Part shown: piece by piece, positions 6,701 to 57,100 of the stretch
How the letters are laid out: each line of letters opens with the position of its first letter
How positions within the stretch are numbered: the stretch's first letter is position 1
Assembly (NCBI GenBank): GCA_002633005.1
Contig: NMRA01000071.1
Coordinates: 427,511 to 491,510 of the forward strand
Length of the DNA: 64,000 bases
Direction of reading: 5' to 3'
Origin: Phoronis australis
Taxonomy: Eukaryota > Animalia > Phoronida
The notes under the pieces: generated by a model
Told to the model about the DNA's origin: nothing
Databases searched by the model: none
Seen by the model: only the letters and a program-made list of their open reading frames with translations
Position numbers and translations under genes: made by a program

Positions 6701-9700
6701 TGTGAGGTAGAGGTCTCTGCAGTTAAGTAAGGAAATATAGTGTACTGTACAGAGTGTGAGGTAGAGGTCTCTGTAGTTAAGGAAATATAGTGTATTGTAC
6801 AGAGTGTGAGGTAGAGGTCTCTACATTGATGTAATGGCCTCCCCCACTCTATACTTCACTTACCCTCACTTGGTCCCACGTACAGGTGGGTTACCTCCGC
6901 CGTAAACACCCGGCGCAGGGAATACTTGACTCTACTAGACAGGAATTCCCCCAGTTTCACAGCCAATGTCTGTTCCAATCGACGAGCTTTAGTGCTAACA
7001 ACTGGCTCACCATCTTCATTCAGGTGTTGGAAGGAATCTGTTAATATTGTATTTAATGGTTACTGCACTAGTGATCACTTCATTTTCACAACATTTACCA
7101 AAGTAATAATTCTATCAAATCTTACCCACATTTACCAATGTAATAATTCTATCAAATCTTACCCACATTTACCAATGTAAAAATTCTATCAAATCTTACC
7201 CATATTTACAAAGAAGGGTGTTACCTTCCCTCACACGCCAGTAGCTAACCTCATGTCTGACATGCAGCATACTCCATGCACTAGGTAATAACACTGATAA
7301 CAGGCAATAATAATAATAGTAGTAATAATAATGATAATAAAGCAATCAGAATTCCTCAGATGAGACCTTTAAACGACATCAGTTGATCCGTTTCCTAACC
7401 TTAGTACTAGCCTTAAAATTACAGACGACAGAAATGTGTCTGACGTAGGTACACATTCCAGTTCAGAGTATCATCAGTACTCTCACATGTCTGGTGTGAT
7501 CTCACTGCCCAACTGTAGACAAAATTACCGACCCACCTTCCAGCCTCAGTTTCAGCAATGACTGCCATGTGTTCCTCAGTTGTACCGCGCTCACCAGGAC
7601 CTCTTCGGCTTCTTCAGCATCAGCAAACTTCACCTCTAACCACTCGTCAAATACGAGTCTGAGGAGAACAGAAAATACATGGTCTTATTGATCATCAAGT
7701 TGGCAACAGGTGGTGCCAGCTGTACATGGTCATGTGATGTAAACAAACTGATATTTCCTGTATAGGCCTGTATACATGCTTGGTGAATAAATGGCAACAA
7801 CAATTTGTAAATGTTTCTCTGTTACCTTCATTGTTAAATTATATAATCATCACAGTTACTTCGTGCAATGTCTTTGTTTGTTTACACAGAAGACTTGGAC
7901 AATATGACTTACTCTCACGTTTGACAGGGCCAATGTGGATTTTGTCTTTTAAAAACATATTGAATACCCTGCAAACACATATTTAAGTGACATCTATAAT
8001 TCAAACCATCAGACATCTACCACTACATGTTGTAATAGTTAGGTGCAGAAAGTCAGTGTAAAGACAATGAATATGAACACATAATGAATGAATGAATGAA
8101 CCAATCAACATTCTTGATACTTCTAACAGTATATTGTGTTGTATTCATACCTGGTGGCTGAACTGTTAGTGTCAATATGGTGAGCGTGTAGTAGCAAAGT
8201 CTGCAGGGCTGGCACTCTCATCGTTCCAGTTAAGTATGGTTTGGTCGTCTCTAAGAGGGTACTGGAAATATAAGTTAATGATGAGTAATTAACAACCAAT
8301 TCTAGCATTTGCAATGGAAATCCAGCAGCACTAGAAGTATGGTGGCCTTTTAGGTCTTAGAATGTATGGTGGTTTACTCACGACTTGTCACTCCTAGTAT
8401 GTATGGTGACTGGCCACTAACACATAACACAACAGTTCATGTCTGTGACTAGTCACTTACACATAACACAACAGTTCATGTCTGTGACTGGTCACTAACA
8501 CATAACACAACAGTTCATGTCTGTGACTGGTCACTTACACATAACACAACAGTTCATGTCTGTGACTGTACACTTCTGTCTTGGTTGTGGTCACTTGTTT
8601 GTCTGAATCAGTGTCTTGAAGATGAAGCAGGTCAGGATGGGTGGCAAATATGGACGTAGGGTGAAGAAGGACGAAGCCCTTTGACTGAAATACATATGGC
8701 AACTCACTGTTACAAAAGAGTTCACAAATAATCTCAGTAAGTTAATATGTTTTGGAACCTAAGCTGTGAGAGCGACTGTTTCATTTGAATGATCAATATG
8801 TGATAAACACACGGTCATTATGTCTCCTTAAGGGGTGAGTATATCAATAATGACCCAACATTGGTGAAGAAAGTCACAAACTTCTAAAATTATGATTATT
8901 CAAATATCAAAACATAAAATTGTAAATATTCTATCATCATACTTGTCTATCTCCATAAATTATTGTGTGACAAATAATGCCTACCTTTGTATGGAATGCC
9001 TGCTCTGAGTCTGCCTTAAATGAGTTGCACTCGTCTGGTAAAGACACCTGTGGGTAGAGACCACTACTAAGGATGACCTTGAGTAAGTTGATCTCTCGTC
9101 GCGTGAACTGCCGACTCTGATTAGACTTTTCTTGTTCTCTCTCCATGTCATGAGTTAGACGGAACTCAAGGTCTTTGATGTCATTTGCAGCATCATCATC
9201 ACTGGACTTGTCATCCTGGGTGACGACCTATATACAGTGAGATGGGACAAGGTAATGACTATAAATCTAACGGCATGATGAGCTCAGAGAACAACAGAGG
9301 GCAGCTCAGTGGTCAATGCAGTCTACAATAAAAAGAGAAACATTCGTGAAATCCTTTCACATTTCATCAAATAGCTTCTTAACTCCATTTTTCAACCCAG
9401 AGAAGATCATTATGTATTTTCTCAATCCTTAATGACTGAACAAAAGAAAACATTTAAAACATTGTGCACTTATATCAGAGCATTGATATTGTATAAGTAA
9501 AAATTATTAGGCTTCTTACAAGCCATACGTTGGTCACGTCACATGACCTATAACAGTTAAGTGTGATCTCCGTCTCAACAAGGCCTTGAACCTTGAACTT
9601 TCTGCAAACCGTGCATTATCTCTAGTCCACTAGGCTGGCGGGACCACCGGTCGATCACAGAAATCCAATCAAACATATTTACACATGGATAAGATGCCTT

Positions 9701-12700
9701 CTATAAGTCTGAATGAATTTCTGTAATTGGCTGGTGATGCAGATAGTGCAGTGCAGTAGACAAAATTAGTTTAAAATGTTTAACCTCCTGCTGTTATGGA
9801 AAAGCAACCTAACATAAACAAAGTCACGATATTACTTAAAGTACATAAAGTGCAGCGACTAAAAACAAGTCAGAACAGAAGTTTAACCTCATTTTCCAAC
9901 TTCAGCACTTTCCGTTTGCGTGACAGGTTGTTTTGAGTTCGCTTCAGGTCACGTAACTTCTTGCGCTCACCGTGTCTCTGTCGTCGCTGCTCACTAGTTA
10001 ATAACCTCTCAGGTTCTTCAGCAGCTTGATGTAACAAGTTATGGTCCTACAGGCACAATGACATCATCACCTCATTTGAGCTTCATATAACAAGTTATGG
10101 TCCTACAGGCACAATGACATGATCACCTCATTGAGCTTCATATAACAAGTTATGGTCCTACAGGCACAATGACATCATCACCTCATTAGGACTGTGAAGG
10201 TATATAAGAGAGAGACCTTGACAAAATCAATAATGAAGTACAAATGGGTTGACTACATTTAACAGAAAAAGTTTGACTACAGGTGTCACTAATTGTGCGC
10301 TCCTATTCACACCCTGTACATGAATTGACCAAAATAATTTTATCCCAAAACTCAGTGCCACCTTCAGGAGGTCCTTGAACTGTCTCTTCAATTTGGTCAT
10401 CTCATAGAACCGTTGTTCCTCAAATCCTCGTCGCTTGCACCACTTCCTGGTCCCATGACCTTCAGCCTTGACTTGTATCCATTCATCGAATGCATTCAAC
10501 AGTGTGAAAGGGTCACCGTGGTCAGACTCAAGTGACTTTCTGGCAGACTAAAAGATGAACATAATTAACTTGAGTCTGAAGTAAGGTAGTGAAGGGAACA
10601 GACAGAACATGTATATTTAAAATTTGTATATTTAACACATGAACGTTTAACACATTCTGGAGAACAGGTTCGTCATTGGTCTCTAGAGGCATTGTAGTAT
10701 ATAAAATGGTCACTTACGTGGTTAGATGTTAACACATGTTTATTCAACACATGTATAGTTAACACTGCAGTACTTAGCCACTGGCACACTTAGCCACTGG
10801 AATACTTAGCCACTGGCATACTTAGACACTGGAATACTTAACCACTGGCACAGTCGCAAATGTGACTCAAAAAGGTGCTGTGCCAATTGTTCATTGGCTG
10901 GTCACTCTGGTGGTGAGTGGATTTTCTGAGCGATTGCGGACTTATATGATTTTTCTGTGTGGAATTCACTGCAAGAAACTGTCTCCTCCTCACTGTGGTG
11001 TTATTACTTAATACTAGGATATACGCTTGATACAAAACACGATTTTGAAGCATCATGGTGAATAACTTTGTTTCAGGTAATTTGAAAACAGTGAAGGCGT
11101 GCCTGTCGTTACCTCTGAATAAGAGTCATCACACCCTAGTAAGCGAATTCTTAACAATATCATGTTTACCAAGGCCATAGTCAGCCACAAACTTTCTGCG
11201 TCACAAGCCTATTTTTCACAAGAATTCTTGACTGTCTTTTGTCCACTCACCATATCCCTCCTCAAGTATCATCTACACTACATGTACACTCACCATGTCC
11301 CTCCTCAAGTATCATCTACACTACATGTCCACTCACCATATCCCTCCTCAAGTATCATCTACACTACATGTCCACTCACCATATCCCTCCTCAAGTATCA
11401 TCTACACTACATGTCCACTCACCATATCCCTCCTCTAGTAACATGTACACTACATTTACACTCACCATATCCCTCCCCAAGTATCATCTACACATGTACA
11501 CTCACCATAGCCTCATGGTCTGTGTGTGCTCTGCTTGTGAATGGAGACTGTACACTAAGTGCAGCAGCCACAGACAATATAGGATCTATCATGTGAAATA
11601 TTGAGCCCATGATCAGCATCTTGCCAATAGTCACATCTACAGGAAGTTGAGCCAACATCTGGCCAATAGGGGTCAGTGTCTCATCGTCAGCCAGTGCCCC
11701 CTGGTCCTTGAGGAAAGCGATGGAGTATTCTAGACTGTCTCTGGCTGGTGATTCAATGAAAGGGAACCTGCAGAAGAGTTGCAAAATGTCAATGAGTCTG
11801 GCAGACTACAGCTCCTCATGGTGGCAGATTTCACCAAGTACAGATGCAAAGATGTTCGCATTATTAGTGGCCTCTACGTGTCAAAATGGAGCATCTAATA
11901 GGTGCATTGAATGCATGACAAGTCTAAAGGTCATTAACAAACCAAAAAAAAAACTAGCATGAGAGAAATAAGTATCAAGTCTAGGTGTCCTTTGACTTCC
12001 AAATGACTTTGTGGCATCAGTGACACTGAGACACATTCAGCAACATACTTCCTGGCATCTGGCAGTCCCATAGAGGCCATCTGCAGTATGAGTGAATCAA
12101 GAGGTACTCGTAAGATCTCTGGCGTAGCATACTCTTGAAAGGCATCATAATCTGATTGGTCGTACAAACGGAAACACGTGCCTGGACCAGTACGTCCTAA
12201 ACAGAACATAAGCAATGTACAAGAGACTGAGATGTGTTAGAGTTGAGGATGACATGCAGTCTTGCAGGCAACTAAGTGAAATCAAGTCATATATTTAGAG
12301 TACAGTTTACTTCATAATTGGTCAGTTTGACGTAAATGTTCTTGAAATAGTCACTATCTCAAACTCAACTATTTTACTGAACTTATGGTCAACCTACACT
12401 GTACCTAGTTCAGTCAGAATCTGATGTTCCTGCAGAAGTCTAAAATAGATGGTAATAACAGACTACAACAAGTATCAGACTGGCTGTAATTGTGTTGTTT
12501 AACACCAATCAAGAGTTTCAATATACCTTCCAAGGCAAAACCCATTTATTAGAAATCCAGTGAATGTCCCCATCAAAGCATTTAAAGTTGAGCAAACAGA
12601 CAAAAGTACGTCCACCCATCAAAGTAGACTCATCCACATCCCTCCAAGTAGTCTGATCTGCAAATTAAAGTATTTCTGCCCCCCCCCCACCCCAAAGTAG

Positions 12701-15700
12701 ACTCATCTACGTATTACCTTAAGGCCTCATCTGTGTAAGTATCCCCCCCCCCCGTGTGAGTAGACTCATCTCAGTATACCTGCTCGACCTTTCCGTTGCT
12801 CAGCACTTGCACGACTGATCCAGAACTCTTGAAGTTTCTGCATTTTGAACTTGCTGTCGTAACTCATTTCTTTCACCTAACATGTTTCAAAACATAACGT
12901 TAAAAAGAAGACAGATTTTGTCAATGTTTGTCTACCTGAGAGTCAAAGTTTTGGCGAATGACAATCATTAATTTTGTAAAACCTTTGGCCATAGGCATTA
13001 ACAAAATAACAAATGCTATTTTTGCGTTAGATGCAATGTTTCACTCCTTGATATCAGATTTGATGCGACATTATTGAAGAAATGTTCATTGGCTTAGCAT
13101 GTTCGCCGAGAATAAGAAGTGAATGGGGGTTGATGAGAAAAAAATTGCAACTCGTAAGTTGTGTTAATGAGAAAAGTAAGTTTTTAATTACAATTTCCAT
13201 GTGTACTGCGATGAAGGAAGACTGGCAGATCTTTACTTGGCGGATATTTAAGCAGACACGAAGATGAAAGTAAGTTCTTAGGTACACATCTGAATTTCAT
13301 CATTTCATAAATGTACATCAAACAACTCTGTGCATTTTGATAAAGACGCAAAACAAATTACAACTGCCATCAGGGGGTGCCAAAGTAGTTGGATCTGTCA
13401 GAAAATCAACGTCAGTCGTACTCCTCAAAAGAACACCTGCCACATATCATCATAATTCTTCAAACAGTTTCATGGATAGTGATGTGAAGGACAACACATA
13501 CACAAATAATAAGTTGTTGTCTGCTTGACATGTTGCCAAAACTGCCACAGTCATGAATAACAAGACAAACATAAAGAAAACCAAAATTGATTCTAGAGAA
13601 CGCCACAGTTCTCGGACTCATCGTGAAGTCCATGTCAGCAGTACTGTCTGCAACACTAAGTTTTATGAAGATCAATCAAGGAATTTGATAGACAGTGAAG
13701 TACAGTGAAGTACGGTGAAGCACGGTGAAGTACAGTGAAGTACGGTGAAGTACGGTGAAGCACAGTGAAGCACAGTGAAGCACAGTGAAGTACAGGATAA
13801 ACAAGCTGTCAGGGTACCACAATATTCACACCCATCTGCATATCAATGTCAGCGAGGCTTCTCTCCATAGCAACAAATCAATGTCATCGAGGCTTCTCTC
13901 CATAGCAACAAATCAATGTCAGCAAGGCTTCTCTCCATAGCAACAAATCAATGTCAGCGAGGCTTCTCTCCATAGCAACAAATCAATGCCAGCGAGGCTT
14001 CTCTCCATAGCAACAGATCTGCAGATTTTCATAATGATCCTTCATTCTAGTTTTACAGATGGACAGACAGACGTTAAAGATGGCCACTAGGGGTCGCAGA
14101 ATTTGCTGAATCAGTGTCTAAAAATGGAAAACTGTTATCCCCTCCTTAACAAAAGTTTGTTTGTTAAATTTCATAAAAATCCATCAAGACAATCAAGGGA
14201 TGCAGAGGCAAACATACATTCTGGACAGTAATACCTGAACCTGTCCGAAAATTTGTGCGTGTCGTCTCGTCCATGATAGTAAACATCCATCCAGTTTTAG
14301 AGCACATGCAAAATGACACGTCATGAAGATGAGTGCAAGCATAATTCCTCGTGATGACAACTGAGTGCAAGCAACTCTCCATCAGACCAGCTACAATGAC
14401 TTGTCATCAGATGGCGGCTGATAATAGGTCATGACTCCTCAAGATGGGCAAACAGTATTTTGTCCAATTACTTTTGCTGTGTATCGTATATTAAGTAATG
14501 TGTGTGTATATGTATGCATGTGTGTGTGTGTGTGCGCATAGTGTATGTGTAACTATCTATATGGGTGCATAAAATGGGGACTACTAAGTTTGTACTGAGG
14601 ATTGACTCTACTCAATCCTGGGTTATGTCCAGATATAATTCCCAGTGTAACAACCTTCCATATTTTGTCATGAAACTTAAATATGGTTTGTATAAAAAAT
14701 AAGAAGAGAAATACGCAAGCAAGATTTACACCATGCTGCACATATGACTAGCAGAGCAGCAGAGACATGCATACCTTTCCAGAGTCAATAATGAAGCGCA
14801 CACCATCAATAGTGACTGATGTCTCGGCTATGTTGGTGGACACTATACACTTCCTGACGCCTTCAGGAGAGATGTCAAACACCTGGGGAAAGTAACGATA
14901 CATACAGAATGAATGAGTTCACACAGTATGAAAGAGTTCTCACAGTGAACAGTGTGAACACAGGCGACAGCCTGCACATATTACCTCTGAAATAAGTGAG
15001 CACCTTCGTAAAACTACTTAAATTGAGGTCATAAATATCTGAAAGATGTCTTTTGAACTTCACACAAAACTGTAAATCTGTTGAGACCTCATTATATCAA
15101 CTGTGACTGTCGATTGACAATCCTGACAGTCGAATGTCAATCATGACACTCTATTGTCAACTGTGACAGTCTATTGTCAACTGTGACAATTGATAATGAA
15201 CCGTGACAGTCTTGCCAACTGTGACAGTCGATTGTCAACCGTGACAGTCTTTTGTAACTGTGTCAATTCACTTTCAATTGCACCTGTTGTGATACTGTCA
15301 CTCGTTACAACCAACATCATCTGCTGTAAAAATCAACTTTGACAATCTTTTAACAGGAGTTTGTGATACTATCAAGAAGGAGTCAATCAATTGTCTGTAC
15401 CTTGTCCTGCTCCTCTACACAGAGGGCGCTGTGTAGTGGCAGTATAATCCACCTCTTGGTTGTCTGTGCATACATCTTGGCTGCCTCGACAACTGACATG
15501 ATCTCTGACATACCACTGAGAAAGATAAGCAGGTCTCCTCTCTCAGTAGCTGGGTACTGTAACGAAAATAACTTACATGATCTCAGACATACCACAGAGG
15601 AAGATAAGCAGGTCTCCTCTCTCTGTAGCTAAAGAAAATAAATCTGACATAACTTCTGACACACAACTGAGGGATATAAGCAGGTCTCCTATCTCTGTAG

Positions 15701-18700
15701 CTGGGTACTGTAAAGAAAATAACTCTGACATGACTTCAGGCATACAACTGAGGAATATAGGGAGATCTCCTCACTGCAGTTACTGTAAAGAAAATATCTG
15801 ACATGATCTCAGACATACCACTGAGGAAGACAAGCAGGTCTCCTCTCTCCGTGTGGAGGAAGGAAGCAGCAATGAGACATTGTGCATGTAAGTGGCACAC
15901 TTCCCATTCTCAACACCAGCATCCCTCTGTATTAAAGCTAAATAGTGCTCCATCAACACCAGCATCCCTCTGTATTAAAGCTAAATAGTGCTCCATCAAC
16001 ACCAGCATCCCTCTGTATTAAAGCTAAATAGTGCTCCATCAACACCAGCATCCCTCTGTATTAAAGCTAAATAGTGCTCCATCAAAACAAAGAACATTTA
16101 ACTTAAGACCACTTAATACACTATAAAACTAACCTCAACCTCTTCCTTGCGCAAGTGATTTCTTTGTTTGGAAAGATTTGTCTGAGATTTTTGTTGACTT
16201 AGACCAGACCAAGTGCCAAAAATGAGCAGCCATGACACTTCAACTTGTTGTCTTCAACCAACTGTCACTTCTTTGCAAGCCTAAATGACACTGAAATTGG
16301 CAGGAAGCCAACTTGTTGTTTGGTTTTGTCCAAGTTTACAGTGACGTTGGTCGTATCAAGTGTTTTAAAGAGAAATATTACGAAATGACTGTTTAAAATC
16401 CACAACAATTCAAAGTACCTTGTTGTCAATTCTCTGCATGATCCGTAAGTATGGTGTGGGGTCTACCTTTGACGTCTTCTCTTCTTTGTCTGCCTGACTG
16501 ATGGGGCAGTACTCCAGCTGTATGGGGTATAGACGTCCAGGTACCTATTGACACAGTGTACAGTAGACAGGTGGTTATACTGAGATCTAAAGCAGAGGTT
16601 ATCATGACTTCCGTAAGGTGAGGTAAATCAACAGTGTACCACAGAAAGGAGACACATTTATGTCCTTTTAAGAGATAGTGCACCAATTCTTTTAACATCA
16701 GACAATTATTTATAATCAGTATCATTTTCAAGATTACAGACTAGGAACAAATAGTGAGTAAATACAGTTTTGAAGATCAGCTGCACCAGTGAGTCTAATA
16801 TATAAACAGTGTTCTGGTGACCAGCTGCACCAGTGAGTCTAAGATATAAACAGTGTTCTGGTGATCAGCTGCACCAGTGAGACTAACATATAAACAGTGT
16901 TCTGATGACCAACTGCACCAGTGAGTCTAAGATATAAACAGTGTTCTGGTGATCAGCTGCACCAGTGAGACTAACATATAAACAGTGTTCAGATGACCAT
17001 CTGCACCAGTGAGTCTAAGATATAAACAGTGTTCTGGTGACCATCTGTACTAGAGAGTCCAACATATAAACAGTGCTCATTTCATTTTTGATTGTGAAAA
17101 ATATACTCACATTCGACCATATTTTTTACGGCGTTCTGCCCTACCTCAAATATTCCAAAATAACTTGAAAGGTCTAGCGAAATTCATTCAAGACGCTTTG
17201 CAGGTTAGAAGTAATTGTTTGTTTATAAACTAGTCTGAAGTGGTCATATTTGAGCTTGTGCAATTTGTTATGTAATGATTTAAATATTATTAGGTGACTG
17301 AGTAAGCCCATTGAGGCTGGGGGGTGTGGTGAATAATCTGTATTTGATTGTATTTAGTGGTACCCTTATGTCACTATAATAAATAAATAAAAAAAATAAA
17401 AAAAAAATATAAACAGTGCTCTGATGACCAGCTGCACCAGTGAGTCTAACACACAAACACCCCAAAGTCACCCAAACAGCATCAACATCACTGTCCACAG
17501 TAACAATGTTACCGTGGTTATGAAACCTTACCTTGACAACTGGAGCATTGTCAAAGAATCCACTGAACAAGCCAATGTTGATAGTGGCTGACATTAGCAC
17601 CATCTTCAGGTCTGTACGGTGTTGAGCGAGACATCGCAGGACGCCCAGTAGGCAGTCTGTGTGTAGGTGGCGCTCATGTACCTCGTCTACTATAAGAACA
17701 CTATATTGAGACAGCAGGGGGTCAGTAGTGATTTGACGCAGTAACAGACCTTCTGTTAGGAACAGAATACGTGTTGACTGAGTCTTGCTTTTCTCAAAGC
17801 GCACTTGGAACGCCACCTGTGAACCATACTCGTTCAACGTCTCAAAGGCCACTCGCTTTGACAAAGAGATACAGGCTATGCGGCGTGGCTGAGTGCAAGC
17901 AATCTTAGTGAAGCCAGCCTCTAACAGATATTGAGGAACCTGAGGAGAATAATAATTGAGATAGTGTCGTTATTATTAATATCATTATTATTATTGTTAC
18001 ATCACCATTATTAGCATGTTTTTCATGTTGTTTTTGACAGAACAGAGGTTTAAATTTCAGTAAAGGCCAAAAATAATTGGACAAAGTGATCTAATCGCCA
18101 TGTCTGAATGCAAGCAACATCCTCATCATAATGGCTGAAAGGGATCGCTGGAGGACACTGGTAATGCTCTAAGTGATCACTAGAGGGAGCTAGTAATGAT
18201 TTATAGTCAGAACAAGGTAATGCTGTCTGAACAACACATAAGATGTGTAGTTAACAAAGAAGGCACAATCTGATAGACAGTGTTCCCCTCACACCCTCGG
18301 TTCATTATTACATGGTGAGTCAGACTCAACTTACCTGTGTTGACTTCCCGCAACCTGTATCTCCAGCCACTACTACTACCTGATGGTGCTCAAGTGTGTT
18401 CAATATGGCGTCTCTGTATTGATATATGGGCAGGTTGCGCTGGTCTCGTCGGATTTTTAGCAGTTTCTGAAACTATTTAGAGGATGAAACAAAATGATTT
18501 GATGAGTTAACACAGCATTCAAGTGGCAACAGTATTCTTATGGTGTGCAGAGGAGTATACAGTGAACTTATGATTATGGAGGACCCTAGAAAATATCCAA
18601 AAAAATCCCAACACTATATTGCAGAAATGGCTTATCGTGTTCACACAAAACTTTCACATACACTATCAGAATGCTTTATTGTATTCACACAAAACTTTCA

Positions 18701-21700
18701 CAAACACTTATTGTATTCACACTATACTTTATGCACTGTTGTACAAAACACTGTTAGGAATTGTTTCATGTATAAATCAAATAAAAATGAAATGATTTAA
18801 TACTTAGAAAACTGTAACAGCATTTCTGAGATTTTATCTTTTTATGAAATGTTTGTTTTTGACACCATTGTTTTGCAACAGATGAACATGTACTTATCTT
18901 TTTTCTAATGAACATGCACTTATCTTTTTTCTAACTTTATAAAAAACAAACCGTCAAGTTCTACAGGCTTTGCAGATATTTGGCTATATATGCAGACCTG
19001 TCTAAAAGGTCCTATAATGTAATGCCCATACATGCCTATAATGTAATGCCCATACATGCCTATAATGTAATGCCCATACATGCCTATAATGTAATGCCCA
19101 TACATGCCTATAATGTAATGCCCATACATGCCTATAATGTAATGCCCATACATGCCTATAATGTAATGCCCATACATGCCTATAATGTAATGCCCATACA
19201 TGCCTATAATGTAATGCCCATACATGCCTATAATGTAATGCCCATACATGCCTATAATGTAATGCCCATACATGCCTATAATGTAATGCCCATACATGCC
19301 TATAATGTAATGCCCATACATGCCTATAATGTAATGCCCATACATGCCTATAATGTAATGCCCATACATGCCTATAATGTAATGCCCATACATGCCTATA
19401 ATGTAATGCCCATACATGCCTATAATGTAATGCCCATACATGCCTATAATGTAATGCCCATACATGCCTATAATGTAATGCCCATACATGCCTATAATGT
19501 AATGCCNNNNNNNNNNNNNNNNNNNNNNNNNNNNNNNNNNNNNNNNNNNNNNNNNNNNNNNNNNNNNNNNNNNNNNNNNNNNNNNNNNNNNNNNNNNNNN
19601 NNNNNNNNNNNNNNNNNNNNNNNNNNNNNNNNNNNNNNNNNNNNNNNNNNNNNNNNNNNNNNNNNNNNNNNNNNNNNNNNNNNNNNNNNNNNNNNNNNNN
19701 NNNNNNNNNNNNNNNNNNNNNNNNNNNNNNNNNNNNNNNNNNNNNNNNNNNNNNNNNNNNNNNNNNNNNNNNNNNNNNNNNNNNNNNNNNNNNNNNNNNN
19801 NNNNNNNNNNNNNNNNNNNNNNNNNNNNNNNNNNNNNNNNNNNNNNNNNNNNNNNNNNNNNNNNNNNNNNNNNNNNNNNNNNNNNNNNNNNNNNNNNNNN
19901 NNNNNNNNNNNNNNNNNNNNNNNNNNNNNNNNNNNNNNNNNNNNNNNNNNNNNNNNNNNNNNNNNNNNNNNNNNNNNNNNNNNNNNNNNNNNNNNNNNNN
20001 NNNNNNNNNNNNNNNNNNNNNNNNNNNNNNNNNNNNNNNNNNNNNNNNNNNNNNNNNNNNNNNNNNNNNNNNNNNNNNNNNNNNNNNNNNNNNNNNNNNN
20101 NNNNNNNNNNNNNNNNNNNNNNNNNNNNNNNNNNNNNNNNNNNNNNNNNNNNNNNNNNNNNNNNNNNNNNNNNNNNNNNNNNNNNNNNNNNNNNNNNNNN
20201 NNNNCTATAATGTAATGCCTATATATGCCTATAATGTAATGCCTATATATGCCTATAATGTAATGCCTATATATGCCTATAATGTAATGCCTATATATGC
20301 CTATAATGTAATGCCTATATATGCCTATAATGTAATGCCTATATATGTCTATAATGTAATGCCTATATATGCCTATAATGTAATGCCTATATATGCCTAT
20401 AATTTAATGCCTATATATGCCTATAATTTAATGCCTATATATGCCTATAATGTAATGCCTATATATGTCTATAATGTAATGCCTATAATGTAATGCCTAT
20501 ACATGTCTATAATGTAATGCCTATATATGTCTATAATGTAATGCCTATATATGCCTATAAGGCCCTGCAGATCCCTAAAGTGAATTTGTGAGCACATGAG
20601 CATACTGAGAATTTTTAACTTTAAAAAGTTTATTTAATATGCAGGAAAACTGTCTAATTTTAGCAAACATTTTTTTAACACAGTACCTCTGTCACAAATG
20701 GCTGATTAAATTCACATGAAACTTTAAGACATGAACCTTCCTACACTGTTCTCCACTGTATTCAAAACATTCCACACTTTGCATGAGGACTACCCAATAA
20801 TAGGACTTATGGTTTTCATGAAACTTTAACTTGCATAAAACAAAAACAAACCGAAAACTTAGAAAACTGTCACAGCGTTTTTGTGATTTTATCTTGAATA
20901 TTTTATCACATGAAATTTGATTGTTATTTATCCTGCTGTTTTGCTATGAAAGTATCTTTTGTTTTCACCAAATTTCCTAAAAACGCAATGTCACGTGACC
21001 TAATTCTTTACATCACAAACTAGCATGCCAATCCAAGTAAATTGTCAAACAAAAGACATTCAACCTTCTGTTTCTGTGTAAAGTCCAAGTAGTGAAGAAG
21101 AATGCTGCGGAACTTTGTGACATCATCTCTGGTCAACAGGTTACGGTCTGTAACAACAGGGGGCAGTGTCAATCTTGAATTGTTAACTAATAAGAAATAC
21201 GTTGGAACTTCAAACCATTGCAACATTGACTTGCTCTTCAGCTCTTCAATTGTTAATGACAACCCAAGTCGCAGGCAATGTGTACACGCACCATTTCCAA
21301 ATTTGCAATTTCAGGGATGACTAACACCAATACACTCTGACTGCTAGTTTTGATATTTCTGTTGGTAGTAGAATGCTATCACTCAGCATGAAACTGATTT
21401 TATATGAGTAATGTCTACTTCAATTTTCATTTTTGACCAGCTTAACACGGCCAAATACAGCTTTAAACAACAAGTGACAGATTTATAAATGGTTCCCACA
21501 CACATTCCATTTTCACTTTCCACAAGTTAATTTTCCACAAAAATTCCTGGATGGCTGAAGTCAACAACTATTCCTAAAATGAGCGACGGCGTCTTAATTT
21601 AAATTTTCAACATAATTCCAGCCATGGAAATACAGAGCTCTTTAGTGTTGGAAATTAATTTCACTTCCAAAGAATTACCATCATCCTAACAATGAAATAA

Positions 21701-23100: not shown

Positions 23101-23107
23101 ATTATAC

Positions 23108-27832: not shown

Positions 27833-28350
27833 AGACACCTAGGGAGTGATAGTGAGGTTGAGGACTGTCAGTTACGGCAGACTGTTGGATGAATCTGTGA
27901 ACATGGCCACCCTCTAAATCCGCCCCTGGACACCTAGAGAGTGGTAGTAGGGTTGATCACTGTAATGTGTGGCAAGTTATTTGATGTATTAGGATACATC
28001 AACTAGTGACAGCCAGGGAGTGATAGTGGTCTCGATGACTACCACATATGACGGACTGTTCGATGGATCAGTGAACGTCTACTAGTGACATCTAGTGATA
28101 ATGATGTTGACGACTGTCATGTGTGACAGACTGTGTCCTGAGTGAGTGTACATCTACTAGACACTTCTTGAGTGAGTGGTGCTGATGACTGCCATGTATG
28201 GCAGACTGATTGATGTATCAATGAACATCTACTAGTGACACCTAGTGAGTGATAACGGTGTTGACTGTCAGACCATTGGATCAGTGTTTTTACTAATTCT
28301 ACAACTGACACCTAGTGTGTGACAGTGGTGTTGAGTATTGCATGGTAACC
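27810..28350 (+). repeat. Degenerate ~75-85-bp repeat seeded on the TM2D3 stop codon, forming the proximal 3'UTR
   Basis: Recurrent CAGTGWACATCTACTAGWGACACCTAG..GAGTGATAGTG..GTTGA..ACTGTCA. Confidence 0.7.
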
Positions 28351-29367: not shown

Positions 29368-41896
<12,529 letters not shown>

Positions 41897-42135
41897 GATG
41901 TTTTGAAGTAGTTCTTCAAGAACCTGCGCACTGTAACGTCCTTGACATTGAAATACTTTTCCTTTTTTGGAAAATAACAAGGTAAAAAACTATCCAAACT
42001 GATATAATAAACAATATGTTGTCATCCGAAATTATATTTGAGGTTTTATGTTCTAAAAACGTTTGGAATTGCTATCGTCTTTAAAAGCATTACTTTTTAG
42101 CGAGTGTACACGTATGTAAAGCGGTTTACGCCGTG
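41897..42135. promoter_or_regulatory. Bidirectional promoter PSMC3/INTS3
   Basis: Start codons are head-to-head with only 239 nt between them (41896 minus, 42136 plus). Confidence 0.75.
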
Positions 42136-45100: not shown

Positions 45101-48100
45101 CAAAATGATAGTTTATAAAAGTGTATAAGCGTTTTTGAGATTTCATTTTGTACATATCGTGGATATACCTTCTTTTTTGTTTTTTTCTGAAAATACAATG
45201 TCACATGATCCAATTCATAGCAGATTAGCATAAAGTCCAAAATCAAATTCTATGGGCTTTCTACTTTTAGAAATATATGCTTTCACTGTGTTCAGTTCTA
45301 TTATGTTTTCACTGTGTTCAGTTCTATTATGCTTTCACTGTGTTCACTTCTATTATGGTAAATTTGGCTAAATACACTGACAGGTTGTTGATCTACATAA
45401 TTTTAGTTTTAGTATACTGGTTATAATGCTCTCTGTAGTTTTCTTCTTTTTGTTCCTATTTGCATTTAATTAATTTACCAATGTCCTTATGTGCCAACCG
45501 TTTCAAAGTTAGAGGCTTTTAGTAATATCTATGCAACACTATGGCACCACGCGAGGTGCATGCTTTCAGGACTCTTTATACTAGAACCTACAATCTTTCT
45601 CTCTGTTTGTATAGTTACCGCACACATGTGCTATACCGATCTGACCTCTGACCTATTCTTACAGATCTGTAAAGGCCCTCAACAACACGAGGAGATTCAG
45701 AATGGTTTGTTCTATGCTGTCCTCTCTGACCCTAAGAATGCAGCCAAGGTATGTCACTTTTGCTGTTCATGTAACCTGCAACAGGTTGTACGCTGATTTG
45801 AATAAGTGTACAGTGTGATTATATTGTGAAATAGTTGCACATACTGTTGTCAGTGTAGACATTTGTTCTCAATAAAATTGCTAGTGAGAGACGATCAATA
45901 CGTTCTAATTGTTTGATGATATAATACCGAATTGAAAAAGAGTGTCATCAAACACCAGTCTCAGTGGCAGATTTAAGGAGAGGCCAAGGGGGCCATGGCC
46001 CCCCTAAATTCTTCCAGATTCCATTTGGCAATTAAGGGGTGCGGATGTCTGACTGGCAAAGTCCTGGCTAATGCTCCGCCCTACCCCCCAATTCAAAATC
46101 CTTGATCCGCCCCTGAGTCTATTATTTACAATGATCATTGCTTGCTCCTTGTAGCACTATCGTGACGCCACATTGACGAGTCGTGACGGGATGTCAATCA
46201 TAATACAGAGAGCCAATCAAATCATACATGAAAAGTGGCTCAAGCTTCAAGACAGAGCTCGCACCCAGGTATGGCATGTGCTGGGCTAATCATCACTCAC
46301 CCGAATCACTTGAAAACTTTAGTACATGTGTACTAGGCTAATCATTTGCAAGTCACAAGATTGTGTCTATACTCTTGCCAAGCACTTTCAAATGAAGTGA
46401 TGAAATATGCAGTTATGTATACATGTGCAAGGTTGACAGTGAAATGTTGAGCTTTGACCTTAATATGTTCACTGAACCGTGTCTGTTGTAGGTTGTTTGG
46501 TTGTGTCGTGAACTGGTAAGAAACAGTGTACAGGGAGCTGACTCTGTCATCCACACCATCTTACGTCAAATTGCAGGTAATTGTTGTCAATCACCAGCTG
46601 TCAGAAAGTATGTCATGTTTAGGCCACTCACCATCAACATGTTATTTTCTCATTACGTGGTAAATTCTTATTTCGTAGGTCCGTCCACCAAATATGTGCT
46701 TGAAGTATGTTTAGTTGTGATTGTCAACAGAAGCGAGTTGAAAGCATGTTAATAATAAAAGTAATACCGTAACTCAAATAAAAAGTAATATTAATTATAA
46801 AAGTAATAACTCAAATAAAAAGTAATATTAATTATAAAGGTAACAACTCAAATTTAAAGTAATATCTGTGCCTGGTTAGAGTACCGTACCTGCAAACCAG
46901 ACACAATGCACTTTCCGTGAATAGGCTGTCAATTCTGCTTGCACATTTTTCCACTTAATTTTGTCTGAAAATGAGGTGCCATAGCAGCTGTAATCTCTTA
47001 ATGCTATCTCCCAATATACTGCAGAATGATCCATTGTGTAGAGTAACCGACCATGTTGACATAATTCATGTTGACCTAATTCCCAATGCACAGTATACTT
47101 AGTTGCATGCTGTCAATACCTTGATTATCCTTACTGTGTATCATCATTTTTCTTAGTTGATATTGTATTCTTTCTTATTTGTCTATTTTCCCACAGGTGG
47201 TGACGTGTCTCCTAAGAATGTTTGGCTGGCTGAAAATGTGTTAGATTTACTCACAGAAAACAGGTTAGTCCTTATTATGTACTAGTGACGTCTACACACT
47301 AGCCATGTATCAATGAAATGATGGAGTTAATATTTAGTTGTTACCAGATCTGTTGACGTGATGGAGGTCGTCATGGTGACTTGTTGTTTTAAAGGGTTAG
47401 CAGCAGTTTGTGCATTTGGATAATATGTGTTGCCTGATGTTCTTGTTCTAAAACCAGGTGTTTCTATGTAAAATGTCTTCACAATCAGAAAACTTTGCAG
47501 GGTCTGGTTAGACAAAAGTCCTTTCTTGATTGGCATGACTGTGTTTACTTACCTGCGCCTCCTGGTGGATCATTGGGCACCTAACTTCAAGAATTTGAGA
47601 CAGAGAGAAGTGGACTTGTGTGTCAGTCTACTCACGGAGAAGGTAATCTCTTGTTTGTCTTTGGTTTGTTCATTTCAAAGTGGCCAAACACCACCATTTA
47701 CTTTGTTTTGACAAGACAGTACCTCTTTAGTGTCTTCAAAATGTCTTTCATGGCATTGCGTATTGAATTCATTTTCCCATTTTTTAAGTGTGTGTGCACT
47801 AACTGTTTCTCTGAAATGTCTCAAGATTACAATGAGTCTAAACAGAAACTTACTCCATAACTTAAGACTGGTCGCAAGTCTCTTTGGACTTTTTGTATAG
47901 GAGTGTACTCAAATTACAACATGGACGCACATGCTGTAAAATTCAATAGCAACACCATCGGTACAGTATCTTGTCTAATAATTTCTAAGCGACTTGAGAC
48001 TCAGTAATGTTAAATCAGTCTTGCCTGCCACAGCATGTAACATAGTGAGCAGGTTCACACCATGTGACGCCAATGGGCTCTAGAACCGTTACGATTCACT

Positions 48101-51100
48101 GGGTTGTCTGACTCAATACTCTGAAACAGTTCTTTCCAACCCTTGTCTTTGTCTTCCAGTGGGTAGACTGCATGTTGATTGGCCGAGACCTGGTGCGAAT
48201 GATGCAGCAGGTTGCTAGGATACCAGAGCTAGAGGCAGTTTGGAGAGACATTCTGCACAATCCATCAAAGTTACACTCCACCTTCACAGGTAATCAGGCT
48301 GTTGCTATGCTAACTAGGGGAAACATCTGTAACAACTCGATTGAACTGTGTCCTTGTTACTTGTCATCAGTGCTGAGTTCTGTCAGTTTGAAATTAACAT
48401 GTGGTGGTGAAGCAACAGTCCGTCTGCAAACATTCAGATAATCCATGAGAGGCTCAGCCCCTCAACTTGGGTCTCTCCTCTATATAGGACGCCTTCTCAG
48501 TGACTTCAATTAATGAATATTGCACCCCTTAGTGATACTTACCATGTTGGTTGATAAAAGATGTTCAAACCTAGACTTCAGTAACCATAGTAATCTTCTA
48601 ACTCATGTCATGTCACATGACCAGCCTTGACTCTCTTCGTGTTTGCATGGTCAATTATCTTGGATTATGATACTTGTTCTTGGTCATTTCTCCTACAAGT
48701 CTCTTACATATGTCCACATGATTTTGCTGTCTAGGTGTCTCTCAACTAATGAATCTCCGCACATCTCGTAAATTCCTGATGTCACGTCTTACCCCTGATA
48801 TGGAAAACAAACTGGTGTTCCTGACAACCAAGGTGAAGTTTGGCAATCACAAGAGATACCAGGATTGGCTTCAGAGGCAGGTGAGTGAAGGACACCTTGT
48901 GGACAGTCCTTGACTTAACATGGAGAAGACAGTGTGAGATAACTTTGACATTTACGATTATGTGGATGTTTACTGCTTGTTAATATTATAGAGTATTGAG
49001 TAATTGTATTCGGATTCTTGTTGTGATTTGACAACTTACCTAGCATTTCACACATGTGTTGCTTGCCCATTTCACACATGTGTTGCTTGCCCATTTCACA
49101 CATGTGTTGCTTGCCCATTTCACACATGTGTTGCTTGCCCATTTCACACATGTGTTGCTTGCCCATTTCACACATGTGTTGCTTGCCCATTTCACCTTGT
49201 GCAACTGACTGTAAGAAATGGATATATTCTTACATTGTGTATAACAACAGAATGGCAAAAATGTTTCTTTTAATATACTTTCCTGTCTCTGAGGAGTTAG
49301 AGTAATGTAGAGGTTACAAGTGACAGTGCAAGTGTGGCCTTATTGTGACTTTGTTATATTATGAAGTGTATTGTTCATAAGTCTAGTCAGAAGTAGGCTG
49401 CTTGTAGACTGTGATTTATGTCTATGTTTTATTTGTATATGTTGTTTTGTATTTTTGTGGTGCTTGTTGCATTTTATGGTTCTGTATTTTTCTAGTACCT
49501 GTCTACACCAGAGAGTCAGTCTCTACGCTGTGACTTCATCAGATATATCTGTGCTGTAATCCACCCACCTAATGAATTATTACAGTCTGATGTCATACCT
49601 CGCTGGGCTGTGATTGGTTGGCTCCTGACCACATGTACTGTGAGTTGATTGGTCTTGTAGCTCGTCATAACAAGTAGACAATGTAAGACTTAATCATTAT
49701 CAGTTACTTTTGCGATTTTACTTTCTGTTACATGTCGCAGTGTTGAAAGAAATGTCGCGCACCAAATTTTAATTTTTGAAAATTTTAAAAAACTGACTCC
49801 CATTAGCTCTGTACACAGTGGTGTAAGCTGCTAGTCAACTTACTGCTGTCTTTAGAGTCTGGTCTATGTGCACCAATATCACAAATTGTGGCAAGTTGTG
49901 GTCTTGTTATTACTGTCTTTTGTTGTTTTAGTCTAATGTTGCTGCTTCTAATGCAAAGTTGGCCTTGTTTTATGACTGGTTCTTCTATGATACTGAAAAG
50001 GACAACATTATGAATATTGGTAAGGACAGTCAGCAGTTAATGTTTAGTTGTCTTATCTTGAAAATAGTGCAGTAGTACAGCTTTTCATCTTTTTAAAGAA
50101 GAGGTAATCCAGTACCAATTATAGCATTTTTAGACTTCAATAACTCACACTTGAATGTAAATGTTACTTGACTACAGGTTTCTATTTAATTTTGGATTTT
50201 CCATGATTTCCAAGCACTTCCAACTTCTAATCCTAAAGAGGGCAGCACCTTTCTTCAGCTCATGTGACCTCATGAGGTCAACTCAGGGGATGTCTGGTTG
50301 ACCTGGTGGAACTAGGCTAATAAACTTAGGTGTGGTGCACATCTATTTCGGAATATATGTTTGCTTAATTTACATCATATTATCTCTATGTATCTAGACA
50401 GCATGTTATGATAATTGTGACCCTTGAACTTAGCACTATTGACCTGGTCATGTGATCCCTTCCAGAGCCTGCAATACTGGTCATCTTCCACTCCATGAGA
50501 CCCCACCCAGCCATTACAGCCACCCTTTTGGACTTCTTATGTAGAGTAAGTGTACACTGATCCCCATGTATGGGCTGTTTTGTTTAGTAAACACACCTGA
50601 GGAGGCATTTTTAATACGGCATCAGATTTTTGTTGACGTTTTATGATAGATTTTTTCTTAATTTAACTTTTTTGTATGCTATTGTGTAATTTACATATGA
50701 ATAATTGGACATCAGACGACCTCTATTGATGGTGAATTGAACTGAGACCATAGGGAACTGTAAACTAAGTCTGTACTGTAGATAGTCCGTGTAAATGGCT
50801 CAGATATAAAGAGGTCACCGTATGAACTGTTTTCTTCAGTCAGGACAGGAGTTACTCACTGTAAGTTACCCAGTTGCCGTAGGTTAGTTGTGATGACTGT
50901 CTCAACTATTTGTATGCTGTTTTCAGATGATGTCAAACTTCTATCCACCTCTGTCACCAGATGTCAAGAAGGGAATCTTCTCTGCTTTACGAGCTATAGT
51001 CGACAAGCGTGTCATGCAGTAAGTAGTGGACAAGCGTGTCATGCAGTAAGTCAAACCTTAGGGACTGCATATAAAACTGTTAGCATAGATTTTCCAGATA

Positions 51101-54100
51101 TTAGTTCAATATTAATCGAATAATTGTTATTTGATGAAGTACACCACCTTAGTGGACTAGTCAACAGCATTATGTTGTGATTTTCCTGGTCTTTTTAGTT
51201 CTAATTCATGTTTAATTCATGTTCCAGGTCCCTCTCTCCTCTCTTTGATAATCCAAAACTGGATAAGGAATTACGCTGCATGATTAGAGACGTGTTTGCA
51301 GAATTTTGCTCTCCAGAAAGTAAGTATTACTTTATTCATCTGAGTTGCTGTATCAAACTTCGCTCAAAATGATGGATATCTTGTCATTAACTTGTAAGGA
51401 ACAACTATGGCATTATCCTGCTAACCATGGCATTATTCTGATAACCATGCCATCATCCCAGTAACCATGGCATTATCCTGGCAACCATGATGTCCTGCTA
51501 ACCATTGCATTATCCTGGTAACCATATTGTTAATGTGAGACCAAAAGATGCCTGCTGCAGCCCCAATATTTCTCTGTTGTTACAGTTAAGGATGACTCTC
51601 CCATGAAGGAGGAAGAAAGCAGTGTAGACGTGGTAGAGATTGCTGAATTCAGTGAAGATGAAGATGATTCCAACAACGGTGGGTTGTTGTCCACTTACTC
51701 TAGGTAGTGGCACTGTGTGCTTACTCTAGGTAGTGGCAGTGTGTGCTTACTCTAGGTAGTGGCACTGTGTGCTTACTCTAGGTAGTGACACTGTGTGCTT
51801 ACTCTATGTAGTGACACTGTCTGCTTACTCTAGGTAGTGGCACTGTCTGCTTACTCTAGGTAGTGGCACTGTGTGCTTACTCTAGGTAGTGGCACTGTGT
51901 GCTTACTCTAGGTAGTGACACTGTCTGCTTACTCTAGGTAGTGACACTGTGTGCTTACTCTAGGTAGTGGCACTGTGTGCTTACTCTAGGTAGTGGCACT
52001 GTGTGCTTACTCTAGGTAGTGGCACTGTGTGCTTACTCTAGGTAGTGACACTGTGCTTACTCTAGGTAGTGACACTGTGTGCTTACTCTAGGTAGTGGCA
52101 CTGTGTGCTTACTCTAGGTAGTGGCACTGTGTGCTTACTCTAGGTAGTGGCACTGTGTGCTTACTCTAGGTAGTTTGCTTTTGCTTTCATATATGATAGT
52201 GAGTGAATGACAATAAATTGTTTAAAGAAGAACAGTTGGCAGTGTTTTGGGAAAGGTCAGGTTCAGATTGTGGTCCAAAGATTTAATTGGAATGAAAGCT
52301 CTACTCCGACAGTCTGGGTAAATGCTTTGTGAATTCATTGTACACCATCAGATGGCAGCAGTAGCATTGTGCAGTTACAGATCTAGTTACAATTGTTTAA
52401 CAAATGAGTGGTGCTGGCATCCTGTCGTCAGTCTGACACATGTCGAGTTATACAAGGTTTCTGAAACAGTCACATAGCATATGTTTTAGGAAAATTGACT
52501 TTGGACTTGAGACTGGTATTTGGTCTTATGCTTCACAAAACTTTATCTAAGAAATAATTAGTTCACGCTTGAGCAAAATTTCTAAGTACAGTGATGCGCT
52601 CATATACTTACTTGACTAAACGTTTAGTCAGCAGTTATGAAATGGGAGCGTGAGACTAAGTGCCCGTCTTAAGCCTTTATTATTTTCATGAAACAAACAT
52701 CTGCAGCTTCCTTGTAGTACAGTATTGGGTGGAAAGTTGGAAATTATGAAAAAATTAATTGGCCAGTTAAAAACTATATGAGTTGAGTAAACTATTTGTC
52801 GTCAGTTGAGTTTTATGTTGGTCAGTTAAAAATTGTTTGTGGTCTGTTGAATGTATGTGGTGATCTTCTCTTTCAGAGAAAGTCAGTTTCACCAATGATT
52901 TGTTGTTCCGTCCAATCAAAGAACCACCACCCATTGAGCACATAGACATCACTGACCAGCTCCCTCTGTTGGATGAAGTAGTTCGTAATTACGTGCTTCA
53001 GCTTCAAAATGAGAAGTAGGTCAATGACTACAAAGTTAATGGGAAGTCTCAGTGAAAGGAGAATTGTGTTTTAGATTTTCAGCTTATATAGTAATGAAAT
53101 TTTAAACAACTATGAGTTGAATTCCATTACAAATAGCCTAGGAAAAGAAAAGTTAAGCTGTTGGTCAAACTATATACTGAGTAAAGGAAAGTATTTTGAC
53201 TGTTCACCTGTTGTGACTTTTAATACTTGCTGTGTCACCATACATCCATCTAGGTCTAGTGAATGTCTCTCATTTCAGGGACAACGAGTCTCAGTGTGAA
53301 ACCATGGACTGCTTGGTTCAAGCTGTCTTAAATCTTGATGATTTTGATCTGGATATGGCCACGCCACTAGCTGTCTGTCTTACCCAAGTCATGGCCAGTT
53401 ACTTGCAAGGAAATCTACTACCCCTAAACCTGGATGACGAGTATGTTAATCAGAAAATCTCCACACATTATAATTGTATTCTTACTCACATTCATCCCAC
53501 ATAACTTATACCATATTTGGAAGATTTGCAGTTTAAAACTGATTTCAGCTCGCATTTCTCAATGTAACATTCTGATGGTTGGTGGCTGTCTCTGTTCTCC
53601 ATATTTACGTCTGGTCATATCATTAGATCACAGTTTTTGTTGCACAGTAGTATGCTGCACTCTTAACTGTCAGCTGCTCACTTAACTGTAGGCTGTACAC
53701 TTAACTGTCAGCTGCTAATTTAACTGTCGGCTATACTCTTAACTGTCAGCTGCACACTTAACTGTTGGCTGCACACTTAACTGTCAGCTGCACATTTAAC
53801 TGTCGGCTATACTCTTAACTGTGAGCTGCACACTTAACTGTTGGCTGCACACTTCACTGTCAGCTGCACACTAAACTGTCGGCTATACACTTAACTGTTA
53901 GCTGCACACTTAACTGTTGGCTGTACTTTTAACTGTCAGCTGTACACTTAACTGTCAGCTGCTCCCTTAACTGTTGGCTATATACTTAACTGTCGGCTGC
54001 ACACTTAACTGTTGGCTGCACTCTTAACTGTTGGCTGCACACTTAACTGTTGGCTGCACACTTAACTGACAGCTGCACACTTAACCGTCGACTGTACACT

Positions 54101-57100
54101 TAACTGTCAGATGCACGACCCTTAACTGTTGGCTGCACACTGAACTGTCAGCTGCACACTTAACCGTCGACTGTACACTTAACTGTCAGCTGCACGGCGC
54201 TTAACTGTTGGCTGCACACTTAACTGTCGGCTATACACTTAACTGTTGGCTGTGCACTTAACTGTCAGCTGCACACTTAACTGTTGGCTGCACACTTAAT
54301 TGTCAGATGCTCACTTAAATGTCCTCTGCTTACTTAATTGTCAGGCACTACCTTACTAAGTACCTTCCAAACTATTTTGAGTTTGAATCCATCTAAGTGG
54401 TCAGGAGTAATTGCTGTTTTCTTAGTTCTACATGAGGCACTGTGCAGCTTGCAAAACCAGTCTATTTATATTATTGCAGGTCAATAGAAGACTCAATGGG
54501 CACTCCGATATTTGTACTCTTTAGGTAAGTTATCTTCAGCTTTTAACACATATAGTGTAAGATATAAGGCAGGATTTATTGTGAAATATTCTATAACATA
54601 TTGCATCTCATTAACTCCAAGTCTTCCTAACATATTGCATCACATTAACTCCAAGTCTTCCTAACATAATGCATCACATTAACTCCAAGCCTTTCTTACC
54701 ATTCAAACTATGTGAATGTTGAATTACAACTGTGTAATTTTCAGAAATTTGTGTCAAGTGTCTGAGGAGGACCCCAGTCGACATCCGCTGCTGTTGTTAC
54801 TGAGTGAGATGTGTCAGAAGCAGGCACGGATAGGATATTACCTGTTGTATTACCTGAAAGTAGGGTAGGTATTGCGTAGGATACTACCTGTTGTATTACC
54901 TGAAAGTAGGGTAGGTATTGCGTAGAATGCTACCTGTTGTATTACCTGAAAGTAGGGTAGGTATTGCGTAGGATACTACCTGTTGTATTACCTGAAAGTA
55001 GGGTAGGTATTGCGTAGAGTGCTGCTTGTTGTTTTGTCTGAAGGTAGGGTAGGTACTGCGTAGGATGCTGCCTGTTGTATTACATGAAAGTAGGTTAACT
55101 ATTGTGTAGAATGCTACTTGTTGTATTGTCTGAAAGTCGGGTAGGTATTGTGTAGGATGCCATCTGTCGCATTACACCAAAGTGGGGGTAGATTTTGTTT
55201 TCTTCTAAAGTACTGTCAATAGAGGATGCCTACTTTAGAGTGTAATATGAAAGTTGGACGTGATATTTATATGTTAAAACAACTAGTGCAGGACAGAAAC
55301 AATATGTATTATCTACTTTCCAAAGTGTATCATTACTCGCATATACTGTGCGTGCATCATTCGTCTGCTGTTCTTTCTCCTAAACTTTGAGAAGTATCGT
55401 AGTGACTTTTGGCAGATGTGTTCCTATGAAGGCGGTGGTGAATTCTGAATCAAACAAACTACCTTTGTGCACCTTTATCTGTATCAGTGTATTTTCATGA
55501 AATTTTACAAAAAGATTTCCGTTGAGGTGACAGTTTGTGCTACTCTATATTAAAATTTGCTGAATTATGAAGTCATGAAGTCATGTGTAGCGTGTTGTTT
55601 GGCGGAATAACATTATTGTTGTTATCGTTGTTGCTGTTATTTCTGTTATTTGTAGTAAGGTGAATGATGAGAAGATGACGTCGTACAGAGACTTGTGTAA
55701 AAGTCTGGAGATGAAGCTGGAGACATGTATACTGACCCATCTACAGCAGAGTCTAGATGATGACATCAGGATGTTCACATTTATAATTCCTGACATCTAC
55801 ACTACGGTAGGACATACATTTTGTAACCACTCAACTGACATCTACACTACGGTAGGACATACATTTTGTAACCACTCAACTGACATCTACACTACGGTAG
55901 GACATACATTTTGTAACCACTCAACTGACATCTACACTACGGTAGGACATACATTTTGTAACCACTCAACTGACATCTACACTACGGTAGGACATACATT
56001 TTGTAACCACTCAACTGACATCTACACTACGGTAGGACATACATTTTGTAACCACTCAACTGACATCTACACTACGGTAGGACATACATTTTGTAACCAC
56101 TCAACTGACATCTACACTACGGTAGGACATACATTTTGTAACCACTCAACTGACATCTACACTACGGTAGGACATACATTTTGTAACCACTCAACTGACA
56201 TCTACACTACGGTAGGACATACATTTTGTAACCACTCAACTGACATCTACACTACGGTAGGACATACATTTTGTAACCACTCAACTGACATCTACACTAC
56301 GGTAGGACATACATTTTGTAACCACTCAACTGACATCTACACTACGGTAGGACATACATTTTGTAACCACTCAACTGACATCTACACTACGGTAGGACAT
56401 ACATTTTGTAACCACTCAACTGACATCTACACTACGGTAGGACATACATTTTGTAACCACTCAACTGACATCTACACTACGGTAGGACATACATTTTGTA
56501 ACCACTCAACTGACATCTACACTACGGTAGGACATACATTTTGTAACCACTCAACTGACATCTACACTACGGTAGGACATACATTTTGTAACCACTCAAC
56601 TGACATCTACACTACGGTAGGACATACATTTTGTAACCACTCAACTGACATCTACACTACGGTAGGACATACATTTTGTAACCACTCAACTGACATCTAC
56701 ACTACGGTAGGACATACATTTTGTAACCACTCAACTGACATCTACACTACGGTATGACATACATTTTGTAACCACTCAACTGACATCTACACTACGGTAG
56801 GACATACATTTTGTAACCACTCAACTGACATCTACACTACGGTAGGACATACATTTTGTAACCACTCAACTGCTCTTATAGTACCATGATGACAATACTT
56901 GACCAAAGTATTACGCACTCAATCACTTTCTTTACATGTAATCATGACGGATATTTTGCTTCAGTTTATAATACTGGACATGTGTACCATTAATCACTTT
57001 GTTACAATGATATCACCACGATTTCTTTCGTCAAATTGCATTGGCCTCTCCTACTATTACACTGTCTTCTCCTACTATTACACTGGCTTCTCCTACTATT

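Follow-up and report, generated by a model that had tools for sequence, protein, structure and literature searches.

Mirages is the name given in amphioxus Adh3 to tandem repeats that lie over exon-intron borders; amphioxus mirages are also described in the globins BflGb6 and BflGb9, in troponin C and in PGBD5; they occur at both borders, splicing is normal and their origin is called unclear (PMC3087553, PMC3902484). In human, donor-spanning minisatellites are reported in intervening sequence (IVS) 7 of F7, as a 37-bp variable number tandem repeat (VNTR), and in 6-16, CBS IVS13, LAMIN B2 and PDGF; mutation experiments with F7 showed that the most upstream donor wins whatever the frame, which argues against reading-frame selection (PMC1557585). 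The present work concerns a stretch of 64,000 nucleotides (nt) from Phoronis australis (contig NMRA01000071.1, positions 427,511 to 491,510, forward strand; hereafter the window, with positions counted from its first letter), in which tandem arrays lie at splice junctions of DHX34, PSMC3 and INTS3. The arrays are real and dense but of a known kind, and the nearest-site rule holds at the six sites seen in RNA and was already known. An earlier note, made from the letters of the window, knew of no named system to match them; amphioxus mirages and human F7-type VNTRs do.

As in amphioxus mirages, the unit spans the border, donor and acceptor types both occur, splicing is unaffected and the sizes overlap (10-72 bp in Adh3). 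Unlike them, the arrays described here belong to a lophotrochozoan host and were counted against a null expectation, with an excess at donors only. The likeness to human F7 lies in an authentic donor within the first unit, identical pseudo-donors after it and use of the most upstream donor even where later ones would preserve it; the F7 unit (4 exon and 33 intron bp) also resembles that at DHX34 exon 11, which holds 4-7 exon nt. The human examples are scattered single loci, whereas 9-10 of the 55 donors are involved here. Splicing in 6-16 and CBS also takes the two pseudo-sites that follow; no such use was seen here at modest RNA depth. The gain of introns through tandem genomic duplication (the Rogers model cited in PMC3087553; see also PMC4974935) shares the duplication of sequence with splice signals; here, in contrast, it is existing borders that are covered, the mRNA stays as it was and there is no evident new intron or exon. 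A narrow search of the open-access literature, which is weak evidence of absence, yielded no genome-wide or lophotrochozoan account of such arrays. Single loci in the window are ordinary mirages; the additions are that the first-donor rule appears to hold in a lophotrochozoan and that a donor-specific excess is suggested. A genome rich in mirages would make their origin testable.

Junction arrays in DHX34, PSMC3 and INTS3

Models of the three genes were built from homologues. They have no internal stops, all their introns are GT-AG and their proteins align with homologues over the full length; the exon numbers of the earlier note agree with them.

3760..23100, minus strand: DHX34, 21 coding exons modelled, 14 introns confirmed by RNA joints
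29368..41896, minus strand: PSMC3, 12 coding exons, 429 amino acids (aa), 5 introns confirmed by RNA joints
42136..63688, plus strand: INTS3, 25 exons within the window, from homology only, head-to-head with PSMC3

Tandem Repeats Finder (TRF) and a scan of the modelled junctions gave the following arrays.

8406..8575, minus strand: DHX34 exon 15 donor array, period 39, 4.4 copies, about 30-37 exon nt per unit; real donor between 8539 and 8538; 29 RNA reads
10023..10187, minus strand: DHX34 exon 13 acceptor array, period 55, 3 copies, 24 exon nt; real acceptor between 10047 and 10046, in the last copy; 12 RNA reads
11240..11509, minus strand: DHX34 exon 11 donor array, period 43, 6.3 copies, just 4-7 exon nt; real donor between 11506 and 11505; 12 RNA reads
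15491..15849, minus strand: DHX34 exon 7 acceptor array, period about 74-79, 4.7 decayed copies, 64 exon nt; real acceptor between 15557 and 15556; 17 RNA reads
31083..31279, minus strand: PSMC3 exon 9 donor array, period 39, 5.1 copies, 34 exon nt; real donor between 31246 and 31245; 114 RNA reads
32538..32711, minus strand: PSMC3 exon 7 donor array, period 64-65, 2.5 copies, 29 exon nt; real donor between 32683 and 32682; 85 RNA reads
33731..34082, minus strand: PSMC3 exon 6 decayed donor array, period 31-40; donor between 34048 and 34047, from the gene model
37211..37290, minus strand: PSMC3 exon 3 two-copy donor duplication, period 40, 33 exon nt; donor between 37258 and 37257; from TRF and junction scan
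43936..44808, plus strand: INTS3 exon 2 array, period 38, 23 copies; begins at the donor between 43936 and 43937; excluded from the spanning count
50997..51051, plus strand: INTS3 exon 13 two-copy donor duplication, period 27, 22 exon nt; donor between 51018 and 51019; from TRF and junction scan
54831..55175, plus strand: INTS3 exon 19 donor array, period 46, 7.5 copies, 34 exon nt; donor between 54864 and 54865; from TRF and junction scan
55790..56872, plus strand: INTS3 exon 20 donor array, period 45, 24 copies at 99%, 17 exon nt; donor between 55806 and 55807; copy number from the assembly alone

TRF thus placed all 12 arrays where the earlier note had reported units copying a genuine junction. 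In 11 of them the unit spans the exon-intron boundary with at least 4 exon and at least 5 intron nt, and in each of these 11 a distal GT or AG survives intact in one copy or more. The INTS3 exon 2 array only begins at its donor: its copies repeat the GTAAG core alone, with 1 exon nt in ungapped register, and it is borderline as boundary-spanning. When all modelled junctions were scanned for copies in the adjoining intron, blind to the earlier list, 11 of the 12 arrays were recovered, together with one 1044-nt segmental duplicate at DHX34 exon 19. Measured periods (27-79 nt) slightly widen the 27-77 bp first given. BLAST links no array to another, in agreement with the view that they are unrelated in sequence; a common repeat family or transposon as their source was rejected on the same result. 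At DHX34 exon 7 a second intact acceptor lies 151 nt upstream of the real one, and at INTS3 exon 20 the first distal donors examined are in frame and without a stop.

That the arrays are an artefact of assembly is hardly credible. Copies have diverged from one another and from the exon copy, and separately assembled DNA contigs cover the whole DHX34 exon 7 array (X2, 13959-15939, with 0 differences) and the whole PSMC3 exon 7 array (X4, 32344-32780) and reach into other arrays from both flanks; the DNA runs represent one sample, possibly that from which the assembly was made. For an artefact speak N gaps and a local 1044-nt duplicate in the window, the agreement of exon base 8560 with intron copies and not with a DNA contig, and the presence of 99% arrays longer than the reads. 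For INTS3 exons 20 and 2, whose arrays are long and near-perfect, the copy number is that of the assembly.

Position 8560 lies in DHX34 exon 15, within the repeated unit. The assembly has the letter of the intronic copies there, which encodes Arg; the exon-spanning DNA contig and 9 of 13 and 13 of 21 RNA reads have a different letter, which gives Lys, the residue of 10 of 13 homologues. This is either a consensus error together with a polymorphism or gene conversion from intron copies to the exon in some alleles. Junction arrays can upset assemblies and gene models, as at this position.

Splice-site use in RNA

Three RNA runs labelled as the same species, about 18-19% of each, were used on the PSMC3 and DHX34 stretches, and they cover 6 of the 12 arrays; one run (X7) has nearly no DHX34 reads. 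Joints were considered when supported by at least 3 reads, with two further joints on the DHX34 stretch standing outside this set. Among the joints so considered, all at the six arrays use the exon-proximal copy (114 + 85 + 29 + 12 + 12 + 17 = 269 reads), as the earlier note had predicted from the conserved protein. The first donor is used at PSMC3 exon 9 (114 reads), PSMC3 exon 7 (85), DHX34 exon 15 (29) and DHX34 exon 11 (12), and the last acceptor at DHX34 exon 13 (12) and DHX34 exon 7 (17). No joint at a distal copy, and no joint between copies that would mark a new intron, was found among those considered at the six arrays; depth bounds distal use at the DHX34 arrays to 10-22%.

PSMC3 exon 9 separates site choice from decay. 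Its four distal donors are all in frame and stop-free, the last scoring 9.8, the same as the real donor. RNA depth is 0 over 31068-31190 in the three runs, and distal donors account for 0 of 114 reads, with a 95% upper bound of 2.6%, or 5.3% with two unlisted reads, presuming that the sampled animals have the array. Since these donors are stop-free and yet unused, site choice and not decay accounts for this case, and the proposal that nonsense-mediated decay (NMD) removes errors does not apply to it. Distal use at most arrays would create a stop codon; at the other covered arrays it does, and NMD is possible there. The first-donor rule thus appears to hold in this lophotrochozoan without help from NMD, at PSMC3 exon 9, and the arrays are likely harmless.

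Chance expectation and origin of the donor excess

Tandem arrays are abundant in all three genes: 50 lie in the 55 introns, 35 of which have at least one, and they make up 12,951 of 45,428 intron nt (28.5%, one 691-nt N gap within an array counted). For the null expectation each array was collapsed to one unit (or to a unit plus 8 nt, or a unit plus a partial copy) and placed at random, but not wholly within an exon; it was scored as spanning when at least 4 exon and at least 5 intron bases were covered at a junction. The statistics come from one window chosen for its pattern, the split into donors and acceptors was made after the data had been seen, and split intronic arrays (34295/35088 and 16778/17404) were maybe counted twice, which makes the expected counts slightly higher. 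With placement across the gene, 11 of 51 arrays are spanning against 4.0-5.2 expected (P 0.001-0.011); when arrays may move only inside the intron that holds them, the count is 11 of 50 and the expectation 5.5-6.9 (P 0.013-0.063). Acceptors in the latter test stand at chance level (2 against 2.8-3.4). In this window, the claim that arrays exceed a shuffled background at junctions therefore stands for spanning arrays, about twofold overall, and is confined to donors.

A general clustering of arrays near junctions, which the earlier note had also suggested, did not hold up: donors have 3 and acceptors 4 of the 39 non-spanning arrays at a distance of no more than 40 nt, and chance would put 3.9 at each (the array at 63723, whose intron leaves the window, was omitted). 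Array density alone would produce about half of the striking count, and the remainder is a roughly threefold excess at donors. Only one array in the three genes is wholly exonic, in DHX34 exon 1 (22893-23056; in frame, period 57 or 19 aa, 2.9 copies).

We consider that the arrays are probably mirage-type minisatellites, that is, short tandem duplications over a splice site which splicing tolerates and which grew as ordinary minisatellites do. Their history would start with frequent tandem duplication of 10-80 nt in these genes, a process suggested by the observed density of 50 arrays in 55 introns. Duplications wholly within coding exons would be purged unless in frame, and the period-57 array of DHX34 exon 1 would be a survivor. 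When a duplication crosses a donor, the first copy stays on the intact exon and is used, and when it crosses an acceptor, the last; the protein is unchanged, as observed at six sites. Copies may then expand, homogenise and decay through slippage or unequal exchange, with selection keeping only the exon copy. In the last and weakest step, the donor excess would likely reflect longer persistence beside an exon that cannot be deleted, together with the picking of the window for its pattern, and acceptor copies would be partly purged as an upstream AG competes. That no unit fails to reach into the intron is a logical consequence and no evidence of targeting: if the proximal copy wins and the mRNA is unchanged, the extra copies are intronic by definition.

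Several points weigh against this reading. Donors are in excess under every null, with 9 spanning arrays against 2.8-3.4 expected in their own introns (P 0.001-0.005), 9 against 1.9-2.5 with introns pooled and 6 against 1.8-2.2 in the 38 introns of at most 600 nt (P 0.006-0.02), the lowest donor P across nulls being 0.0001; uniform duplication with survivorship is therefore not a full explanation. On small numbers, 6 donor-spanning arrays have at least 4 copies (1.9-2.3 expected) and 3 have fewer than 4 (0.9-1.1 expected); the similar excess among arrays of two to three copies slightly favours donor-focused mutation, because persistence does not predict it. In addition, the RNA was taken from different animals, in which the arrays may be shorter or missing. 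For the donor excess we nevertheless prefer longer persistence together with the selection of the window.

It is somewhat unlikely that chance and the selection of the window explain everything and that the genome has no true donor excess. The total spanning count is borderline under the strictest nulls (P 0.05-0.06), the window is one of very many read and the donor/acceptor division is post hoc; against this, the donor-only P is at most 0.02 in every variant run. That 5' splice sites are the specific place where tandem duplications are generated or retained, about threefold over background and at nearly one donor in five, is a conclusion that we would draw only tentatively and hold to be fairly unlikely. 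If true, donor recognition would have left a mutational footprint throughout the genome, and the arrays would supply thousands of natural tests of how the first donor is chosen, as well as seeds from which introns might slide or be gained.

The form of this idea in which duplications arise preferentially at 5' splice sites, acceptor events being rarer or purged, seems unlikely. A feature of the donor (U1 binding, polymerase pausing or R-loops) might promote breaks or slippage, or recombination starting in a conserved exon might fail at the start of a polymorphic intron. The threefold excess, present in young arrays too, fits such a bias, as do five donor units with only about 5-12 intron nt and two that start at most 7 nt from the donor, and the exons are polymorphic, with 6 variable sites listed in the 146-nt DHX34 exon 15. 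These points are set against a single window chosen post hoc with n = 9, and against the lack of excess among non-spanning arrays beside donors; the excess is seen separately in PSMC3 and INTS3, but DHX34 alone is not significant (2 against 1.1-1.3). No microhomology signature was shared by the five arrays read in register, whose ends match over 7, 3, 2, 1 and 0 nt. The mechanism of the earlier note, mutation focused on exon borders through pausing, R-loops or nucleosome edges, is possible for donors only.

Selection in favour of the downstream donor copies, as extra U1 sites that define the upstream exon or guard the transcript from premature cleavage, is very unlikely. U1 bound downstream can help splicing, most distal copies retain GT, many of them match the score of the real donor and the excess is limited to donors. 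Young or homogenised arrays would retain GT anyway, however, and donor copies have been lost in the decaying arrays of PSMC3 exon 6, PSMC3 exon 7 and INTS3 exon 19; nor are the real donors at arrays generally weak, their scores (2.9-11.2) lying inside the range of all 55.

Neighbouring genes and other repeats

Gene trees place the host in Lophotrochozoa, outside the sampled molluscs. The nearest relative is Lingula in the DHX34 tree, from a quick search, and Owenia in the INTS3 tree, whose set has no Lingula; on these trees an amphioxus origin was rejected, as was a grouping with Branchiostoma by the approximately unbiased (AU) test (p-AU 0.0026). The start codons of PSMC3 and INTS3 lie head to head, about 240 nt apart (41896-42136), and by this arrangement the interval is probably a bidirectional promoter. 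Convergent with the 3' end of DHX34 is a gene of the EF-Tu family (Pfam) with a large single 3' exon (2436-3455), probably mitochondrial.

Beyond PSMC3, a decayed repeat of about 75 nt (27805-28334) has a unit that holds the last codons and the stop codon of a neighbouring TM2-domain gene (Pfam TM2), probably TM2D3, and reaches into its 3' untranslated region (UTR). Judged from its letters, this repeat appears to be a stop-codon analogue of a donor mirage, which suggests that other coding 3' edges are copied too. In the 3' UTR of PSMC3, which is expressed, a 19-20 nt array (29243-29364) starts 4 nt past the stop codon.

The duplicate recovered at DHX34 exon 19 pairs 4878-5488 with 5804-6532 (97-98%); it contains the exon with both splice sites and lies 1044 nt downstream. 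The two copies are separated by an element that is also present at 936-1263, and they represent either a segmental duplication or merged haplotypes. The intronic minisatellites at 34295-35321 and 16778-17459 are each split by a later insertion, and 16964-17377 has very high DNA depth, as for a dispersed repeat. PSMC3 intron 1 contains a 336-nt imperfect inverted repeat (40953-41288), and INTS3 intron 24 a decayed array with units of about 400-460 nt (61581-63275).

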